Positions 10,415 to 62,063 of a stretch of 64,000 bases of DNA are shown piece by piece. Positions within the stretch are counted from its first letter, which is position 1. Each line of letters starts with the position of its first letter. The notes under the pieces were generated by a model. The model saw only the letters and a list, made by a program, of their open reading frames with translations, was not told the DNA's origin and made no database searches. Location: the NCBI GenBank assembly GCA_964427405.1, contig CAYRUB010000002.1:68741-132740 (forward strand). Reading direction: 5' to 3'. The stretch comes from an uncultured Planctomycetales bacterium. GTDB taxonomy: Bacteria > Omnitrophota > Gorgyraeia > Gygaellales > Profunditerraquicolaceae. The translations under genes were made by a program, and so were the position numbers.

Positions 10415-10445
10415 CTGGTTTTAATATCATAGGTAGGTAATCAAT

Positions 10446-10551
10446 ATCCCCGCAGTTAATCGCTTCGCAAATTCTTCACAGAATTTGTTCGCAACTGCAG
10501 GGATTAATTCGCACATTGACTTATGTTTACTCCGTTCCATAAGCCAAGTGC
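10446..10551. repeat. Intergenic hairpin cluster (member of the dispersed hairpin family)
   Basis: Outer imperfect stem TCCCCGCAGTT (10447-57) / AACTGCAGGGA (10493-503), enclosing CAAATTC-ttcaca-GAATTTG. A second hairpin is GCAC-a-TTGACTTATG (10511-25) / CATAAGCCAA-GTGC (10538-51). Both mismatches become G-U pairs on the minus strand, where the loop reads GAACGGAGTAAA. Confidence 0.6.
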
Positions 10552-10561
10552 TCATTAATTT

Positions 10562-10635
10562 CGCGGGGTGGAGCAGCCTGGTAGCTCGCAAGGCTCATAA
10601 CCTTGAGGTCATGCGTTCAAATCGCATCCCCGCAA
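10562..10635 (+). tRNA. Initiator tRNA-Met (CAT)
   Basis: Hand-folded cloverleaf that is near-identical in its 5' half to E. coli tRNA-fMet (CGCGGGGTGGAGCAGCCTGGTAGCTCG). It has the C1xA72 mismatch, anticodon loop CTCATAA and T-loop TTCAAAT. No encoded CCA. Confidence 0.9.
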
Positions 10636-10679
10636 TTGAACATACACCTGTACCGTTAGATGCACATATTGTGTAAAAT

Positions 10680-10702
10680 CCCGTGAGCGTAAGCGAAACG
10701 GG
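10680..10702 (+). repeat. Small hairpin of the GAGC-loop family
   Basis: CCCGT-gagcgtaagcgaa-ACGGG. The 13-nt loop closely resembles the loop at 35891-35903 (gagcgacagtgaa). Confidence 0.45.
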
Positions 10703-10715
10703 GTCAATACAAACA

Positions 10716-10759
10716 AGGCTAGGATGAGCAGTTATGCAAATCCTGGCTTTTTTGTTTTT
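10716..10759 (+). terminator. Rho-independent terminator after tRNA-fMet
   Basis: Stem AGGCTAGGAT / ATCCTGGCTT (two G-U pairs), loop gagcagttatgcaa, followed by TTTTTTGTTTTT. Confidence 0.55.
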
Positions 10760-30476: not shown

Positions 30477-30480
30477 ATTT

Positions 30481-30593
30481 GAGCACCCAAAGTTTTGGTT
30501 TAGCGAAATCCTTGATCGAACGTTAGTGAGATCAAGGATCTAGAGCACCTTAAATCTTTTATTTAGTGAAACACTTGTGCCAAGCGCAAGTGC
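30481..30593 (+). repeat. Intergenic hairpin element (dispersed family), + orientation
   Basis: GAGCACC at 30481. Perfect 10-bp stem ATCCTTGATC (30508-17) / GATCAAGGAT (30530-39) with loop gaacgttagtga. GAGCACCTTAA at 30543-53. Second hairpin CACTTG-tgccaagcg-CAAGTG (30572-92). Confidence 0.65.
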
Positions 30594-30628
30594 CTACCGG
30601 CTTGGAGAGGTAGGGAAGATGTAATTTC

Positions 30629-30699
30629 TGCCCGGTAGTGTAATGGTAGCACATCAGAATTTGGGTCTGACTGTCAAGGTTCGAATCCTTGCCGGGCAA
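30629..30699 (+). tRNA. tRNA-Gln (TTG)
   Basis: Hand fold: TGCCCGG/CCGGGCA acceptor (U1-A72), anticodon stem TCAGA/TCTGA with loop ATTTGGG, T-arm CAAGG-TTCGAAT-CCTTG. No encoded CCA. Confidence 0.85.
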
Positions 30700-32938: not shown

Positions 32939-32981
32939 GCGGTAGGTGTAATTCTTAATAAAGAAAAGAAAGGTAAAGAAA

Positions 32982-34618: not shown

Positions 34619-35080
34619 ATGGCCAGTTATAATAAAGTATTATTGATGGGTAATCTTACTAAGGATCCCGAGTTGCGCTATACTCCGCAAGGTACCGCTG
34701 TAGTTAATCTGCGCCTGGCGGTAAATCGTAAATACCGCACTAAAGAACAGGAACTAAAAGAAGAGGTTTGTTTTATAACCGCGGTAGTTTGGAATAAGCA
34801 GGCAGAGACATGCAATCAGTATTTACATAAGGGAAGCAGTGTTTTTGTCGAGGGAAGATTACAGTCGCGCTCCTGGGAGGATAATACCGGGGCAAAGCGA
34901 TCGGTAATTGAGGTCAGGGCGGAACGTGTGCAGTTTATGGGTGCGCCTGGCCAGGGCAAGCCAGCCGGTCAAGCCAGCCAAACACACGCAGAGGTTTTGG
35001 TTGATGAGCCGAGCAGCGAATCAACCTGGTTGTCAGAAGGCGGCGATGATGCCCAGCCTTCTGAAGAGGGGATAAATTAA
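34619..35080 (+). CDS. ssb: Single-stranded DNA-binding protein
   Basis: YNKVLLMGNLTKDPELRYTPQGTAV OB-fold start and an acidic C-terminal tail. Confidence 0.9.
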   Translation: MASYNKVLLMGNLTKDPELRYTPQGTAVVNLRLAVNRKYRTKEQELKEEVCFITAVVWNKQAETCNQYLHKGSSVFVEGRLQSRSWEDNTGAKRSVIEVRAERVQFMGAPGQGKPAGQASQTHAEVLVDEPSSESTWLSEGGDDAQPSEEGIN

Positions 35081-35431: not shown

Positions 35432-35872
35432 ATGGAAGTAATATTAATCAAAGATGTAGAAAAAATCGGTAAAGCAGGCTCGGTGGTTAAAATCAAAGAG
35501 GGGTTTGCCAGGAACTTTCTTTTCCCGCATAACCTCGCCAAGATAGCTACTCCGGGAGGCCTTAAACAATTAGACAAAGAAAAGCAGGCGAGGTTGGCGC
35601 AATATGCCAAGGGTAAAGAAGAATCAGAGGAAATTAAGAAACGCCTCAGCGCGCTTTCTTTAACTATTTCTGCTTTGACTCAAGGTGAGGAGTTATATGG
35701 CAGTATCAGCAGCCATGATATAGCTGTTGTTTTGAAAGAGGAAGGTTTTCTTATAGATAAAAATGTTATTGAATTGGCTGAGCCGATAAAATCTTTAGGG
35801 GTTTATGAATTTTCCGTGAAGTTACATCCGGAAGTAATTGCAACGCTCAAGCTTTGTGTAGCTAAAAAGTAA
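35432..35872 (+). CDS. rplI: 50S ribosomal protein L9
   Basis: MEVILIKDVEKIGKAGSVVKIKEGFARNFLFP is the L9 N-terminal domain signature. Confidence 0.95.
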   Translation: MEVILIKDVEKIGKAGSVVKIKEGFARNFLFPHNLAKIATPGGLKQLDKEKQARLAQYAKGKEESEEIKKRLSALSLTISALTQGEELYGSISSHDIAVVLKEEGFLIDKNVIELAEPIKSLGVYEFSVKLHPEVIATLKLCVAKK

Positions 35873-35880
35873 CTGAGTGC

Positions 35881-35954
35881 ATAACTTACGGAGCGACAGT
35901 GAACGTAAGTTATCTGCGCGAAGTTATACTGCATCCTGAAGGGATGCAGTATAA
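35881..35954 (+). repeat. Intergenic double hairpin (dispersed family), + orientation
   Basis: Perfect 10-bp stem ATAACTTACG (35881-90) / CGTAAGTTAT (35904-13) with loop gagcgacagtgaa. Then a perfect 13-bp stem TTATACTGCATCC (35924-36) / GGATGCAGTATAA (35942-54). Confidence 0.7.
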
Positions 35955-44378: not shown

Positions 44379-44392
44379 ATAATGTAAGATTA

Positions 44393-44493
44393 TCCTTGCT
44401 CACTTTGTTCGCAAGGACTTCGCTGGATTAAACCTTAAGGTGCTCGATTCACGCATTGACTTACTCGCACTGCCGTGCTCGTAAGTCAAGCGT
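44393..44493 (-). repeat. Intergenic hairpin element (dispersed family), inverted orientation
   Basis: TCCTTGC (44393-99) / GCAAGGA (44411-17). CCTTAAGGTGCTC (44433-45) is the reverse complement of GAGCACCTTAAGG. ACGC-a-TTGACTTAC (44451-64) / GTAAGTCAA-GCGT (44481-93). The minus-strand loops read gaacaaagtga and gagcacggcagtgcga. Confidence 0.65.
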
Positions 44494-44556
44494 TCATAAA
44501 CTTCTTGACATCGGCTGGTTGTAGTGTGAAAATAAGTGTAAACAAAGGAGGTAGTT

Positions 44557-44832: not shown

Positions 44833-44930
44833 TTGAACTTTTTAAGGGTTATTAAGTGAACTTTAGGGCGCTGCTTAATGAGTAGCGCCCTATTCCTTGT
44901 TCGCCAGATAAGAACCATAGGGCACTCATT

Positions 44931-47847: not shown

Positions 47848-47920
47848 GGAAAATTATTGCAGCATAAAGTCTTTCTATGGATAATCTCTTCATGACTCCA
47901 TTCTTTTGCGAACAATTTTC

Positions 47921-56886: not shown

Positions 56887-58419
56887 TTATTCTACTAAAT
56901 TTTGGAGAGGTGGCAGAGTGGTCGAATGCGCACGCCTGGAGAGCGTGTGACCCGCAAGGGTTCCAGGGTTCGAATCCCTGCCTCTCCGCCAACAAGGATA
57001 GGGCGCTGCTTCAAACAGGGGACGGAAGGTGCCTTCCGTCGAAAAATTGAGGCGGCGCTCTTTTAAAATAAAGTTCGAACCAATCTTTTCCAGAAATTCT
57101 TTCTGGGATTCTAAATTTCCCTCTTCAATCGCGCAACGGGCTCTATTTAAAGAAGTTACAAGTTCTTTGGCCGGTTCGAACCAATTATTTGCCCCAGCAG
57201 CAAAATCCTGCATAGATTCCTGCAATTCCTTCTTATCGTTAATAAAAGCTTCCTTCTTAGCCTGATATTCTTCAAGCGTCAGAGTGCCTTCAAGGTAAAC
57301 ATCAATAAGCTTATTAATCTTAGTTTCAATCGTCTTAACCTTAACTTCAAGATTTTGCTGCTGGGGCAACGATGATTGGACACCGCTATTTCTGTCTTTT
57401 TCTAACTCTTCTAAAATCTTCTTTGTCCAATCATCGCACAAAGAAACTTTTTGAATGAAGGATTTGATCTGCGCGGCAAGCGCTTCTTCACGCACATACT
57501 TCTGATTGCAATTTGTAAGGCGCTTGGTGCAGCGGTAATAAGTATGTCCTTTTTGGATTTCAGCGGTTATTGACCTTCCGCATTCACCGCAACGCATTAG
57601 CCCCCTGAAAACAAATTTAAATTCTTCTTTCTTGGGCTTGCCGCGCCTAAGCATTACTTCCTGACACTTATCAAAAAGTTTCTTTGTGATAATTGGTTCG
57701 TGTGTACCTTCATACATCTCGCCTTTATAGCGAAATACGCCGTAGTAGAGAGGATTTTGCAGCATAAACTGGTAGTCGCTAACAGATAAAGGCTTATCTT
57801 TTCTGCCGGTCATACCAAGGGTGTTTATCTTACGGCGTATTTCGCTAAGAGGATAAGAGCCCGTTGCGTAGATTTCAAAAGCTTTCCTGATGAAAGGAGC
57901 TTTGCCCTCATCCAAGATAATCGCGCGGGTCTTGCGGTCGTTAAGGTATCCAACAGGCGCCCATTGAGGCCAGATACCTTTGCTTAACTTGAGGCGGATG
58001 CCACGCCTGATATTCTCTGAAAGGGCATCTATATAATACTTACTCTGCCCGAAAGCGATAGAGAGCATAAACTTACCTTGGGCGTTATTATCAAGGCGGT
58101 AGGTAGGAAACTTCAAGTCTTTAATTAAGCCACGATCCAAAAGGTAGATGATGCGCCCGCCGTCTATGGAATTGCGCGCCAATCTATCCGGGTGCCAAGC
58201 CATTATTCCTTCGGCTTCACCTTTTTCGATAGCTTTAATCATATCGTTAAAAAGCAACCGCCCGGGCTCTTTGGCAGTTTTCGCTTCAACTAATTCCTTA
58301 TAAACAAAAAGATTCTCCCGCTTGGCAAAGGCGCGCAATTCCACAAGCTGGGCCTCAATGGATAATATTTGTCTGTCATCATCATCGGTGGACTTTCGGG
58401 CATAGATAAAGTAACGCAT
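56887..58419 (-). CDS. Large serine recombinase
   Basis: 510-codon ORF. MRYFIYARKSTDDDDRQILSIEAQ (catalytic Ser region), a resolvase domain, a recombinase domain, a zinc ribbon CGECGRS...YYRC...C, and a coiled-coil segment. SD AAGGAG lies 8 nt upstream. The last ~60 codons are encoded by IR-L and the antisense of tRNA-Ser, so the true C-terminus is uncertain. Confidence 0.85.
   Translation of the reverse strand: MRYFIYARKSTDDDDRQILSIEAQLVELRAFAKRENLFVYKELVEAKTAKEPGRLLFNDMIKAIEKGEAEGIMAWHPDRLARNSIDGGRIIYLLDRGLIKDLKFPTYRLDNNAQGKFMLSIAFGQSKYYIDALSENIRRGIRLKLSKGIWPQWAPVGYLNDRKTRAIILDEGKAPFIRKAFEIYATGSYPLSEIRRKINTLGMTGRKDKPLSVSDYQFMLQNPLYYGVFRYKGEMYEGTHEPIITKKLFDKCQEVMLRRGKPKKEEFKFVFRGLMRCGECGRSITAEIQKGHTYYRCTKRLTNCNQKYVREEALAAQIKSFIQKVSLCDDWTKKILEELEKDRNSGVQSSLPQQQNLEVKVKTIETKINKLIDVYLEGTLTLEEYQAKKEAFINDKKELQESMQDFAAGANNWFEPAKELVTSLNRARCAIEEGNLESQKEFLEKIGSNFILKERRLNFSTEGTFRPLFEAAPYPCWRRGRDSNPGTLAGHTLSRRAHSTTLPPLQNLVE
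56904..56991 (+). tRNA. tRNA-Ser (GGA), CCA encoded
   Basis: Hand fold: GGAGAGG/CCTCTCC acceptor, anticodon stem CACGC/GCGTG with loop CTGGAGA, variable arm ACCCGCAAGGGT, T-arm CAGGG-TTCGAAT-CCCTG, then G-CCA. The last 6 nt are part of IR-L. Confidence 0.9.
56986..57076. repeat. IR-L: left copy of a 91-bp perfect inverted repeat
   Basis: Exact reverse complement of 58527-58617 (compared base by base). Contains the palindrome GACGGAAGG-TG-CCTTCCGTC at 57021-57040. Confidence 0.95.
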
Positions 58420-58471
58420 AGGGCAAAGCTCCTTTCTCCCAAATAGGGAAGAGGGAAATTTAGAATCCGTG

Positions 58472-58508
58472 CTTTTTATTTTGGGCCTCCATTACCCAAA
58501 ATAAAAAG
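58472..58508. other. Perfect 14-bp AT-rich hairpin in the recombinase leader
   Basis: CTTTTTATTTTGGG (58472-85) / CCCAAAATAAAAAG (58495-508) with loop cctccatta. Lies between the recombinase start and IR-R. Confidence 0.7.
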
Positions 58509-58526
58509 TACAAAAAGATTGGTGAA

Positions 58527-58617
58527 GAACTTTATTTTAAAAGAGCGCCGCCTCAATTTTTCGACGGAAGGCACCTTCCGTCCCCTGTTTGAAGCAGCGC
58601 CCTATCCTTGTTGGCGG
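58527..58617. repeat. IR-R: right copy of the 91-bp perfect inverted repeat
   Basis: Exact reverse complement of 56986-57076. Palindrome GACGGAAGG-CA-CCTTCCGTC at 58563-58582. Confidence 0.95.
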
Positions 58618-59453: not shown

Positions 59454-59525
59454 AGTATAAAAAATAATAGAAACGGTCATATTGCTCGTTACTGGAAACA
59501 ATAAGGAAGATTGAAAGGTAGAAGT

Positions 59526-62063
59526 ATGCCGAGAGGAAAAGCAAAACAGAGCAAAGACATAAAAGTTGAGACATATACGCATAAAGGCAAGAAGCGCAGG
59601 AATAATCCCCACGTTGGCCTTGTCTCAAGCGCAACGGATAAATTAAACGGTCGGACGAAATATAAACACGATCCGTATATAGATCCTTATCTTAGCTGGG
59701 CTGGCAAGGCCGAGGGCATGAGTCTTGAAGTTCAGAATGTTAGTCTCCATATCCATGAGCGCATTGACTCCAAGCGCATCGTCAAAGCTTTTTTAAATAA
59801 AAAAGAACAGAAACAATTTCAGCTCGATTTGTTTGAACAGCCGGACAATGACCCTCCGTTAAACAAGGCCATTGACTTCTATAAACACGAGCAAGATTGG
59901 GCAAACCGACTAATCGCCGGTGATTCACTTTTGGTTATGAATTCTCTCCTCAAGAAAGAAGGAATGGCTGGCAAGGTCCAAATGGTCTACATCGACCCGC
60001 CGTATGGAATTAAATACAATTCCAATTTTCAGCCGTTTGTTGATGACACATCAATGAAGCAAGGCGATAAGGATGGTGATTTAGTTGTTGAGCCTGAAAT
60101 GATTCAGGCATTTAGAGACACATGGGAATTGGGTGTGCATTCATACTTAAACTATCTTCGAGATCGGATTCTATTGGCAAAAGATCTCCTCAGTAAATCT
60201 GGGAGTATTTTTGTTCAAATATCGGAGGAAAATGTTCACAGTGTAAGAGCTATCCTCGATGAATTATTTGGAGTCGAAAACTTTGTCAGCCAAATTAATA
60301 TTAAACGCGCATCGATGATGTTCGCAAAAAAGCTATTAAATAATGCGGTTTATTACGTGATATGGTACGCAAAAAATAAAGAAGAAGTTAGATATCACCA
60401 ATTATTTACCGACAAAGATGAGCAATGGTTTGCGGATTCTGCAGGCGCACATCTTAGGGCGGAAAATCCTGTGAATGGAGAAACCATCTTAGTTCCTGCA
60501 GATATGCGAAAGAATATGAAGGAGTTTAAGATAAAATACCCCGATTGGAAGTTATACAGATTGCTAGGGGTTAATGCTCAAGGTACAGAAAAAAGAGAGC
60601 CATTTGAATTTGATGGAAAAAGTTTTATCCCGCCAAGTGGTACTCAATGGAAATATTCATATGATGGCTTAAATATTCTAAAACAGAAAAACCGTCTTGA
60701 AATTGAGAAGAATAGTTTAGCATGCAAAGTTTATCTCTCAGATTATCCTGTAGAGTCTATAAATAGTTTGTGGGATGGAATTGGTGCGGCTGGGGATAAA
60801 ATTTATGTGGTTCAAACATCTGACGAAATAGTTAAAAGATGTCTTTTGATGACTACCGATCCCGGTGACCTTGTTTTTGATCCTACCTGCGGTTCTGGAA
60901 CAACAGCCTATGTTGCCGAGCAATGGGGACGACGCTGGATCACCTGTGATACTTCACGTGTTGCCGTTACTCTTGCCAAACAAAGATTAATGACTTCGAA
61001 ATATGATTATTACCAGTTAGCACATCCTACCGAGGGCATAAAGAGCGGATTTAAGTATAAAACCGTTCCTCATGTCACGCTTGGTTCAATCGCAAATAAT
61101 GAGCTACCCTCGCAAGAAACTCTCTATGATTCACCGCCTGTTGAGAAAGGCAAAGTACGAGTTACGGGACCATTTACTGTTGAAGCAGTGCCATCGCTTC
61201 GTGTGAAGCCATTTGACGGTAACGAGCCAAAGGTTGAAGCCACAAGCGAACAATTAGCACGCATGGGTGAAACCGGCAAGCAGGTTGAATGGCGTGATGA
61301 ATTAAAAACTACCGGGATTCGTGCGACTGGCGGCAAAGTCATACAATTCTCTCGCCTTGAGCCGATGGTTGCTACGAGATTCTTGCATGCCGAGGGCGAG
61401 ATCCTTGACGCTGGCGGTGAAAATAAACGAGCATATATCAGCTTTGGTTCAGATTTTGGCCCACTCGAGCAGAGGCAAGTTGAAGAAGCTATAAAAGAAG
61501 CGCGTTCTCTAAAAAATAAACCGCACTTTGTAATATTTGCCGCATTTCATTTTGACCCTGAAGCGGCCAAAGACATTGATCAGATAAACTGGCCGGGGGT
61601 AAAGATTCTTAAGGCACAGATGAGTGTTGATCTCTTGACTAAAGATCTACGCAAGAACCGGTCTTCTAGCCACAGCTATTGGCTTATCGGTCAGCCGGAT
61701 GTGGAAGTCACCAAGCATAAAGATGGAAACTACAAGGTAAGAGTAAATGGTTTTGATTATTACAATCCGCTTACTGGCGAAATTGAATCTAAAGGCACTA
61801 AGCACATTGCCATGTGGTTTTTAGATACCGACTATGACGAGAGGAGCCTTTATCCCGATCAGGTCTTTTTCCCTGAGAGCGATTCAAAGCGCGACTGGTC
61901 AAAATTGGCCAAGGCATTGAATGGCGAGGTTAATGAAGACCTTCTGGATAAATTCTCAGGCGTTGAATCTCTGCCATTCGCTGGTGGTGAAAATAAAAAG
62001 ATCGCGGTTAAGATTATCGATAACCGCGGGATTGAAGCCTTTGTAATTAAAAAACTGGATTAA
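59526..62063 (+). CDS. mod: Type III restriction-modification DNA methyltransferase (Mod), beta-class N6A/N4C
   Basis: Motif IV VYIDPPYG precedes motif I FDPTCGSGTT (beta order). Conserved N-terminal HDPYIDPYLSWAGK segment and a long C-terminal extension. Start taken at ATG 59526; the tracked TTG at 59511 has no spacing to an SD. Confidence 0.85.
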   Translation: MPRGKAKQSKDIKVETYTHKGKKRRNNPHVGLVSSATDKLNGRTKYKHDPYIDPYLSWAGKAEGMSLEVQNVSLHIHERIDSKRIVKAFLNKKEQKQFQLDLFEQPDNDPPLNKAIDFYKHEQDWANRLIAGDSLLVMNSLLKKEGMAGKVQMVYIDPPYGIKYNSNFQPFVDDTSMKQGDKDGDLVVEPEMIQAFRDTWELGVHSYLNYLRDRILLAKDLLSKSGSIFVQISEENVHSVRAILDELFGVENFVSQINIKRASMMFAKKLLNNAVYYVIWYAKNKEEVRYHQLFTDKDEQWFADSAGAHLRAENPVNGETILVPADMRKNMKEFKIKYPDWKLYRLLGVNAQGTEKREPFEFDGKSFIPPSGTQWKYSYDGLNILKQKNRLEIEKNSLACKVYLSDYPVESINSLWDGIGAAGDKIYVVQTSDEIVKRCLLMTTDPGDLVFDPTCGSGTTAYVAEQWGRRWITCDTSRVAVTLAKQRLMTSKYDYYQLAHPTEGIKSGFKYKTVPHVTLGSIANNELPSQETLYDSPPVEKGKVRVTGPFTVEAVPSLRVKPFDGNEPKVEATSEQLARMGETGKQVEWRDELKTTGIRATGGKVIQFSRLEPMVATRFLHAEGEILDAGGENKRAYISFGSDFGPLEQRQVEEAIKEARSLKNKPHFVIFAAFHFDPEAAKDIDQINWPGVKILKAQMSVDLLTKDLRKNRSSSHSYWLIGQPDVEVTKHKDGNYKVRVNGFDYYNPLTGEIESKGTKHIAMWFLDTDYDERSLYPDQVFFPESDSKRDWSKLAKALNGEVNEDLLDKFSGVESLPFAGGENKKIAVKIIDNRGIEAFVIKKLD

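Follow-up and report, generated by a model that had tools for sequence, protein, structure and literature searches.

A family of modular gene-boundary hairpin elements in Candidatus Omnitrophota, probably small non-autonomous mobile repeats

Four spacers in a 64,000-nt stretch of an Omnitrophota contig (CAYRUB010000002.1, positions 68,741 to 132,740; the whole analyzed stretch is called the window hereafter) contain hairpins with divergent stems and recurrent loops, which an earlier note made from the sequence alone had described as a dispersed family, beginning with positions 30481-30593. Here, we find that these hairpins are sub-parts of larger units built from three modules, a 62-nt rod (X), a linker (L), and a hairpin (Y). 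We conclude that the units are probably small mobile repeats, neither coding nor autonomous, that form a family specific to Candidatus Omnitrophota and stand nearest to the repetitive extragenic palindromes and their kin (REP/BIME/REPIN) and to miniature inverted-repeat transposable elements (MITEs). The elements come and go between near-identical strains, and they therefore look like mobile passengers rather than regulators.

Results

Hairpins of the window belong to modular units with a covarying fold

All seven hairpins of the earlier note were recovered where it had placed them, with the loops it gave:

Plus strand: 30508-30539; 35881-35913; 10680-10702; 10721-10744
Minus strand: 10516-10547; 44392-44418; 44456-44489

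Their recurrent loops reflect a common fold that goes beyond shared loop ends and consists of a lower stem, an internal loop, an upper stem, and an apical loop. The stretches originally described as loops comprise a 5'-GA opposite a 3'-GA, GAA, AA, or AAA above the lower stem, an upper stem of 2-4 bp (R-Y, then C-G), and an apical loop of 3-4 nt. When the lower stem is required to span 7 bp or more, this architecture occurs 8 times in the window compared to 0.08 ± 0.27 times expected from 100 dinucleotide shuffles, and is thus ~100-fold commoner than in shuffled sequence. Two shared motifs also stood up to recounting: GAGCACCTTAA, reported as common to two elements, occurs exactly twice in the window (plus strand, 30543-53; minus strand, 44435-45), and TTGCGAACAA, reported as recurrent, occurs 3 times compared to 0.13 expected.

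Three modules emerge from comparison across loci. X is a 62-nt rod hairpin whose three helices are parted by conserved 5'-GA/3'-AG(A) internal loops, with the consensus TwAAT-GA-GCnC-ATAACTTAyG-GA-rC-(loop)-Gy-GAA-CrTAAGTTAT-(T)-GnGC-GA-ATTwA or, in a longer form with its tail, TwAATGAGCnCATAACTTACGGArCG..AGyGAACGTAAGTTATtGnGCGAATTwATCC. From the base up, X contains a 5-bp helix (H1), a symmetric tandem GA/GA loop (G-A/A-G), a 4-bp helix (H2), a 1-2 nt bulge on the 3' strand, a 10-bp helix (H3), a GA/GAA loop, a helix of 2-4 bp, and a loop of 3-4 nt; the previously described "loop" corresponds to the GA/GAA loop plus the short apical helix. L has the sequence (A)TTTGAGCACCTwAAg...tTAGCGAAATCC, also written GAGCACCTTAA...TAGCGAAATCC. 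Y hairpins vary in sequence and begin within an ATCC, either that of L or that at the tail of X, and some of them also contain the apical GA-rC-NNNN-Gy-GAA module of X. The modules combine as singlets (X-Y or Y-X) or as inverted X-Y-X doublets, of which we counted at least 37 with lengths of 130-273 nt.

Copies were collected from related loci and contigs (designated by L-numbers; 2-21 kb per genome). The GlmU protein of the window shares 50-91% identity with its counterparts in 80 Omnitrophota species representatives, several metagenomes contain contigs with 97-99.9% identity to the window, and an exact-pattern scan provided at least 120 metagenome contigs, mostly from freshwater sediment and groundwater. 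A covariance model built from 17 seed copies and run on the window, the glmU loci, and the metagenome loci yielded 219 X matches with E-values as low as 1e-16. These comprise 31 copies in the 1.30 Mb of the window and glmU-centred Omnitrophota loci and, among the metagenome matches listed, a further 128 in 0.38 Mb and 60 in 0.25 Mb. Exactly three are in the window (plus strand, 35870-35932; minus strand, 10498-10558 and 44438-44500). L-Y units number 30 in 2.0 Mb. Viral contigs were considered as carriers of X and rejected, as their two matches are chance occurrences in coding sequence.

In the 17 seed copies, 91.9% of the cells in the proposed pairs were paired, compared to 23-40% with slid partners, and 11 of 21 pairs had changed on both sides in a compensatory manner. 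The corresponding values for 128 independent metagenome copies were 96.2% and 22-36%, with compensatory changes in 20 of 21 pairs; this alignment was fitted to the covariance model, which favours pairing, and the seed alignment, which was not fitted, gave the same picture. The lower GA/GA loop of X is nearly invariant (121-126 of 128 copies). The idea of a dispersed family with varying stems is thus borne out, in the form of covarying stems and conserved unpaired purines. Rfam contains no family that overlaps the elements even at E ≤ 5, and only tRNAs reach the gathering score. Two structural candidates were rejected. X is not a K-turn, as its GA/GA loop is symmetric and lacks a 3-nt bulge, the 1-2 nt bulge being one helix off, between H2 and H3; and a conserved mini reading frame (RTG NNN NNN TRA) at its 5' end is present in only ~60% of copies, at positions that covary as a helix.

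The covariance model separates the two strands strongly (about 70 versus 26 bits), indicating that each X copy has a defined orientation, and the G-A-loop strand has a more stable fold than the complementary strand. The earlier note had taken G-U pairs at 10446-10551 as a sign of selection on minus-strand RNA. The pairs are as described at that locus, and the argument does not carry over to the family: G-U and A-C wobbles are balanced (11 versus 12, and 47 versus 33) and therefore do not tell the functional strand, and X copies run both ways relative to genes (90 sense, 110 antisense).

Chance palindromes with loops that are alike by coincidence almost certainly do not account for these results. 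One look-alike does occur, the eighth match at 34999-35026, which lies inside ssb and which we rejected as a family member and regard as a coincidence because it encodes the conserved SSB peptide VDEPSSESTWL. Against chance stand the excess over shuffled sequence, which agrees with the earlier claim that the hairpins are not random palindromes, the number and E-values of the model matches, the strong strand discrimination, and the massive covariation.

Elements adjoin stop and start codons

The outer (5') end of X nearly always adjoins a gene boundary. Forty-one of the 219 copies start exactly on the stop codon of an open reading frame (ORF) on the same strand, and 40 of these 41 stop codons are TAA; for a further 104 copies, the start of the next gene lies at most 40 nt from the outer end, and the distances cluster at 0-3 or 10-16 nt, in keeping with the usual spacing between stop and start in these genomes. 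About 30 downstream genes begin 0-3 nt past the second TAA, leaving no room for a ribosome-binding site (RBS). Elements run from the upstream TAA stop to a second TAA before the next RBS or start, and the upstream ORF and native downstream spacer therefore remain intact. An empty and a filled prs / ctc spacer fit an insertion at a stop codon that leaves TAA on both sides: L063 reads TAA gaaaggtaaaa ATG, and L013 reads TAA[93 nt]TAA gaaaggtaaaa ATG. One X has a non-genic target, the P1 loop of a group I intron within tRNA-Asn, where it is flanked by TAA...TAA. This intron, in tRNA-Asn(GUU) of L118 (2266-2541), and another in tRNA-fMet of L077 (842-1061) both interrupt the anticodon loop (RF00028; 72 bits in L118 and 58 bits in L077), and both contigs are Omnitrophota-like.

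The elements of the window, with their modules and bounds, are as follows:

30477..30621, plus strand: composite element of two L-Y units filling the spoVG / tRNA-Gln spacer; preceded by the spoVG stop TAA (30474-76) and followed by TAA (30622-24), then TTTC and tRNA-Gln at 30629
L 30477-30507 (GAGCACC at 30481) and Y 30508-30539, plus strand: L-Y unit 1; Y loop GAACGTTAGTGA
30543-53 (GAGCACCTTAA) and 30572-30592 (hairpin), plus strand: L-Y unit 2
30609-16, plus strand: GGTAGGGA, remnant of a second tRNA-Gln gene, at the end of the composite element
35870..35954, plus strand: X-Y singlet between rplI and the dnaB start
35870-35932, plus strand: X of the rplI / dnaB element; its first three bases are the rplI stop TAA; apical loop GAGCGACAGTGAA; covariance-model score 78.2 bits
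35924-35954, plus strand: Y of the rplI / dnaB element; 13-bp perfect stem with the second TAA at its end (35952-54)
10441..10558, minus strand: Y-X singlet between ftsB and tRNA-fMet; bounded by TAA 10438-40 and by TAA 10556-58, then TTT and tRNA-fMet at 10562; fold z = -7.1
10498-10558, minus strand: X of the ftsB / tRNA-fMet element; apical loop GAACGGAGTAAA; 73.1 bits
10447-10503, minus strand: long Y of the ftsB / tRNA-fMet element
44388..44500, minus strand: X-L-Y element between lpxI and a CBM48-domain gene; TAA triplets at 44385-87 and 44497-99, followed by a sigma-70-like promoter (44505-44533)
44438-44500, minus strand: X of the lpxI element; apical loop GAGCACGGCAGTGCGA; 62.4 bits
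44435-45, minus strand: L of the lpxI element (GAGCACCTTAA)
44392-44418, minus strand: Y of the lpxI element; loop GAACAAAGTGA
10678..10704, plus strand: solo Y-type hairpin downstream of tRNA-fMet; ATCCCGT / GAGCGTAAGCGAA / ACGGGGT
10715..10750, plus strand: hairpin with apical GA-GCA-GUUA-UGC-AA, directly followed by TTTTTTGTTTTT
32939..32955, plus strand: probable 17-nt X-Y remnant in the prs / ctc spacer; TAA gcggtaggtgtaattct TAATAA

The RNA fold of 35870..35954 has a predicted free energy of -40.7 kcal/mol (z = -9.6). For the solo hairpin 10678..10704, we infer membership in the family only from its 13-nt apical module, which recurs in L046 (within X) and in L013 and L201 (within Y units); the hairpin occurs in L217 as well, whose ftsB / tRNA-fMet allele is empty. 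The 17-nt sequence at 32939..32955 matches the right end of full prs / ctc elements in L003, L005, and L019. The third copy of TTGCGAACAA, at 47896-47920 within TTTTGCGAACAATTTTCT, resembles the Y core at 10480-10495 and has no hairpin partner; a sigma-70-like promoter for tRNA-Lys (TTGATT-17-TATACT) lies downstream of this possible remnant of a decayed element.

The hairpin at 10715..10750 is the intrinsic terminator of tRNA-fMet, and its likeness to the family may be derived or coincidental; relatives L016 and L034 have ordinary terminators at this position. This hairpin with its TTTTTTGTTTTT tract, together with the location of some elements at gene 3' ends, could suggest that the family as a whole consists of lineage-typical intrinsic terminators or attenuators at operon boundaries. 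We consider this very improbable. The terminator reading fails because no other X or Y hairpin is followed by a T-run (terminator scans flag none), and, in addition, many elements are within tight operons (rplI / dnaB, prs / ctc), about half are antisense to genes, and empty alleles are common.

Two window loci directly precede tRNA genes, as had been pointed out, and L-Y units are concentrated around tRNA-Gln; some X stems also contain TTGACT, which resembles a -35 box. It is nevertheless highly unlikely that the elements act on tRNA-fMet and tRNA-Gln as promoters, leaders, or processing sites, because most of the 219 X copies adjoin protein-coding genes and because close relatives have no elements at these two tRNA genes. 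TTGACT was rejected as a -35 box for tRNAs, since no usable -10 box lies at the right distance and most copies are away from tRNAs, and the tRNA-Gln cluster is a recombination hotspot with fragments of a second gene and a LAGLIDADG-like gene in L207. Adjacency to tRNA genes is thus real in the window and is not a special link, as the elements adjoin gene boundaries in general.

Elements are gained, lost, and remodeled between close relatives

The elements turn over quickly, and all four window loci vary among close relatives. Between rplI and dnaB, the X-Y element of the window is also found in L204, L206, L207, and L209, whereas L212 has a 13-nt spacer without an element despite 97.5% identity over rpsR-rplI and ~99% identity in the flanks. 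L205 and L208 (87% identity) have two L-Y units in place of X-Y, with rplI ending at the TAA within L, and older orthologous copies in L003, L008, and L034 have decayed by loss of H2 or of the 5' half. In L205 (6721-6873) and L053, rplI is 4 codons longer and ends at a TAA inside the L unit (…AGCACCTAA), indicating that elements can remodel the C-termini of conserved genes. The ftsB / tRNA-fMet element is present in L214-L216 (flanks 99.9% identical), and the locus is empty, with the spacer TAGatacgaattCGCGGGG, in L218 (96.3%), L219, and L217. In L001, the closest species-level relative, the spoVG stop is followed by 7 nt and then tRNA-Gln with no insert, and L207 (glmU 98.4% and spoVG 90.7% identical) contains a different cassette.

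At the lpxI / CBM48 locus, the X arm is identical in relatives with 98-99.9% identical flanks, and the inner modules differ. Where the window has Y (GAACAAAGTGA) and L, L223 (flanks 99.9% identical) has another Y (GAGCGTAAGCGA) and a diverged L, L221 and L225 have the long Y type of window 10447-10503 without L, and L226 has only Y-X. In the prs / ctc spacer, X is sense in L019, L024, and L079 and antisense in L013, L028, and L039, and short remnants are found in L001-L004 as well as at window 32939-32955. L039 also contains two copies at unrelated sites that are 97% identical over 103 nt, with flanks only 33% identical. The density of X is uneven, with at least 10 copies in 21 kb of L039 and none in many relatives.

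Flanking triplets, polarity, and possible mechanisms

The same trinucleotide occurs at both ends of 23 of 37 doublets (21 with TAA, one with AAA/AAA, and one with TGA/TGA); in the AAA/AAA doublet, the internal H1 partners are not compensated. The empty and filled prs / ctc spacers would likewise fit a duplicated TAA. The arms of X fall into H1 subtypes with different orientations relative to the adjacent genes:

H1 subtype TAAGT/ACTTA: 26 sense, 2 antisense
H1 subtype CAAAT/ATTTG: 13 sense, 3 antisense
H1 subtype TTAAT/ATTAA: 9 sense, 40 antisense
H1 subtype TCAAT/ATTGA: 2 sense, 16 antisense

This subtype polarity indicates that doublets are heterodimers of a stop-side arm and a start-side arm, and the overall balance of sense and antisense copies arises because each doublet has one arm of each kind. 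As ~85% of the window genes are on one strand, the polarity could also reflect a replication-linked bias; two X copies beside minus-strand genes in loci of known orientation (L046 and L068), the only such copies, follow gene direction. The polarity may come from the insertion mechanism or from selection.

If the elements are mobile repeats, new copies would be inserted at T(A/G)A, either by a transposase that duplicates a 3-bp target or by a hairpin-recognising single-strand DNA enzyme that inserts beside TAA. The X fold would be kept for the propagation machinery, as a compact form that does no harm in operon mRNA, or for both reasons, and recombination between copies would shuffle the modules.

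Several observations weigh against this interpretation. The outer triplet of X base-pairs with an internal H1 triplet, and heritable H1 variants covary (TTAAT/ATTAA, TCAAT/ATTGA, TAAAT/ATTTA, TAAGT/ACTTA, and CAAAT/ATTTG), so the flank is not a simple target duplication; 14 of 37 doublets, moreover, have unequal flanks. A 3-bp target duplication was accordingly rejected as the whole story. Random-orientation insertion does not explain arm subtypes that are 85-90% polar to gene direction. Indels between populations are not clean, with unlike residual spacers (atacgaatt against 147 nt; aggtacattccac against 112 nt), and recombinational allele replacement could therefore explain the indels as well as transposition or excision does. 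L-Y units break the loops of a tRNA-Gln pseudogene precisely and without duplication, which suggests a different insertion chemistry or two mechanisms. Finally, no autonomous partner was found in the loci compared, and no recurrent gene family occurs beside X in these loci, where the neighbours are housekeeping genes.

The search for a mobility enzyme belongs to the same side of the balance. No pair of X modules brackets a transposase-like ORF in the loci compared. Comparison of the E. coli RayT protein with six-frame ORFs of 2.0 Mb, using phmmer, identified two Y1_Tnp genes (PF01797; E-values of 4e-14 and 5e-15). The IS200-like Y1 gene of L168 (4662-5437) has its own 19-bp inverted repeats, GGGGTCAGAATTATTTTTT (GGGGTCAG-type), which fit the GGGGWSAS-tagged repeats described for RAYT-like genes (PMC3733652), and the nearest X lies beyond a tRNA gene. 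The Y1 gene of L118 is ~1.5 kb from an X, and no X was found in the flanks read. The REP-associated tyrosine transposase (RAYT) partner that the earlier note had suggested looking for was not found next to the elements, and the Y1 genes of the 2.0 Mb are not tied to X. A large serine recombinase in the window was rejected as the partner, as the ends of its element (56992-58611) are unrelated to X. This small integrated element lies directly after tRNA-Ser(GGA) and encodes, on the minus strand at 57080-58419, a protein with Resolvase, Recombinase, and zinc-ribbon domains between inverted repeats of ~70 nt, each palindromic in itself; next comes a gene for a DNA methylase (59511-62063).

A host-functional intercistronic RNA is the main alternative to mobile repeats. 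The stop-side X would present its G-A loops to an RNA-binding protein or RNase, and the hairpin set would serve as a processing or stability signal that guards the upstream cistron at its 3' end and the downstream cistron at its 5' end; alternatively, a compact fold would hold the stop codon near the next start codon and so preserve translational coupling. We regard such a function as rather unlikely, and it keeps some weight because of the subtype polarity, the pairing of the stop codon itself in H1, and the ~30 genes whose starts lie 0-3 nt beyond the second TAA. Unpaired conserved purines combined with covarying stems are also the usual mark of a protein-recognized folded strand, and the greater stability of the G-A-loop strand points in the same direction. 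What speaks against an essential role is that the elements are dispensable, with spacers empty at 96-97.5% identity and in most relatives, orthologous copies decay, the neighbouring genes have no common role, and inner modules are swapped freely. Half of the X copies, moreover, present only the pyrimidine-loop complement in mRNA, and no Rfam family matches.

We also entertain, as a long shot, a more specific proposal for X. It might be the folded single-strand substrate of a mobility system that homes to stop codons in a manner dependent on gene direction, with the terminal triplet (TAA, TGA, CAA...) picked by base pairing with a guide triplet in H1. Alternatively or in addition, a fold flush with the stop codon might let terminating ribosomes re-initiate across its base, which would make an insert of 130-270 nt between translationally coupled genes silent.

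The spoVG / glmU spacer and other repeats

The spoVG / glmU spacer is a recombination hotspot with two alternative tRNA-Gln(UUG) genes (TGCCCGG... and TGGGACG...), seen at the following sites:

Window 30594-30628
L201 4255-4615
L040 4575-4665
L031 2430-2520
L008 9740-10000

In L201, the second-type tRNA-Gln is split into four pieces. One L-Y unit follows AAT in its D loop, another follows AATTT in its anticodon loop, and the gene is further interrupted by the other tRNA-Gln together with a Y-X element; the window retains only GGTAGGGA...TAATTTC of the second type. We rejected the idea that the elements are tRNA-derived repeats, as the likeness (TTG...TCGAATCC) is too weak and the tRNA-like pieces are real fragments of the second tRNA-Gln. 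At L207 690-1415, the position of window 30477-30628, a 241-aa ORF takes the place of the L-Y units and is followed by the other tRNA-Gln type. It has LAGLIDADG-like motifs (IALGDGN and GLFETDG; weak Pfam matches with E-values of 0.0017 and 0.013), and its 3' end survives upstream of the other tRNA-Gln type in L003, L007, and L205. The ORF could encode a free-standing homing endonuclease that drives tRNA-Gln allele swaps.

Tandem identical 52-nt L-Y units with the loop GAGCGTAAGCGAA occupy the minus strand of L013 1-130 and run off the contig end, and such arrays probably break metagenome assemblies. In the window, a 13-bp hairpin after the CBM48 gene (44864-44892; TAGGGCGCTGC-TTAATGA-GTAGCGCCCTA) has AGGGCGCTGCTT in common with the ends of the serine-recombinase element (57000 and 58600), and it may be a solo end or belong to a second repeat family. 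In other Omnitrophota, spacers of these kinds hold an unrelated palindromic family, GGGGACGkyy...rrmCGTCCCC (~50-110 nt):

L010, L012, L023, L025, L026, L028, and L029: GGGGACGkyy...rrmCGTCCCC copies in spacers after tRNA-Gln, rplI, and prs

Short tandem repeats (cgtaat-, ctgtaag-, and ctgtgaa-type) are found in spacers of L018, L026, L027, L033, L067, L070, L071, and L074.

Discussion

The earlier note had offered REP/RAYT-like, terminator-like, or processing signals as possibilities. REP-like sequences are indeed the closest known analogue, and the terminator-like option does not hold, as a T-tract follows only the hairpin at 10715-10750. RAYT Y1 transposases mobilize the REP/BIME elements and REPIN doublets of Proteobacteria. 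REPs are imperfect palindromes of 20-40 nt with a GTAG or CGTC tag at one end (PMC3733652), and RAYT cuts single-stranded REP at GTAG (PMC3733652; PMC3479197). They are extragenic, occur as singletons, inverted dimers with spacers, and clusters, and vary between strains (PMC3733652). The Omnitrophota elements resemble REP, BIME, and REPIN sequences in that they form inverted doublets (37, with Y as a structured spacer), heterodimers, and clusters (the tandem array of L013), are mosaics of a few modules, are strain-patchy (presence or absence at 96-97.5% flank identity), and keep their fold as stems vary; recognition as a folded single strand is plausible for both. They differ in that X is 62 nt long with three helices and two G-A loops rather than a simple palindrome, and its consensus lacks a GTAG or CGTC tag on either strand. 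The ends of X (T(A/T)A-RTGAG) lie exactly on stop codons, TAA stands at both ends, and doublets are polar to genes. No RAYT flanked by these repeats was found in the 2.0 Mb searched.

Bacterial MITEs, such as Correia/NEMIS of Neisseria and RUP of pneumococcus, derive from DDE insertion sequences; they are non-coding, have inverted termini and short direct repeats, lie near genes, and can form long hairpins in RNA. The Omnitrophota elements share a length of 100-270 nt, inverted terminal arms (X at both doublet ends), and a short direct repeat at the ends. Unlike in MITEs, however, every X arm forms a conserved hairpin of its own that covaries, stem sequence differs between the arms of one doublet, the triplet flanking X pairs and covaries with an internal triplet, and target use is confined to stop codons; the 2-21 kb per genome yielded no parent insertion sequence with these ends. 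Mycobacterial interspersed repetitive units (MIRUs) are intercistronic direct tandem repeats with small reading frames whose ends overlap flanking stop and start codons. Location within operons and ends at stop or start codons are thus shared, whereas MIRUs are not known to form hairpin rods and X lacks a conserved mini reading frame (an in-frame stop follows RTG in ~60% of copies).

In IS608, the flanking cleavage site is read by pairing with a guide beside the hairpin foot, and elements of the IS200/IS605 type insert 3' to a short fixed target that is not duplicated. The IS200/IS605 group is similar in its hairpin ends, guide pairing would explain the covariation of the flank with the internal H1 triplet, L-Y units are inserted precisely after AAT in the tRNA-Gln D and anticodon loops without duplication, and Y1 transposases exist in these bacteria. 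The end hairpins of IS200/IS605 elements are on the same strand, whereas X arms are inverted; TAA is present at both ends, and no linked Y1 gene was found. Pneumococcal BOX elements are built as boxA-boxB-boxC, and module number and content vary at one locus between strains. This modular build is matched by the swapping of Y and L at the lpxI locus. BOX is unrelated in sequence, belongs to another phylum, and is not known to be placed at stop codons; RUP and BOX are both named in PMC3049150. Our literature search found nothing specific on Omnitrophota repeats or on stop-codon-overlapping palindromes. With no match in Rfam and no record of Omnitrophota repeats found in the literature, the X/L/Y family appears to be undescribed.

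Omnitrophota form a widespread phylum, as yet uncultured, whose genomes are compact. The family shows how a selfish element can spread through genomes with almost no intergenic space, with the stop codon as a safe landing site and the genes on either side left intact. The elements mark hypervariable spacers in near-identical genomes and are thus useful for strain typing, and they likely cause assembly breaks and mis-called gene ends in metagenome-assembled genomes, as for rplI of L205. The X rod, in which both G-A loops are conserved and 20 of 21 pairs covary, is a defined ligand with which to fish for the partner enzyme. Its polarity to gene direction provides a testable link between mobile DNA and translation signals, and the stop-codon-homing or ribosome-reinitiation proposal, if true, would establish a new kind of relationship between mobile elements and translation signals in bacteria.

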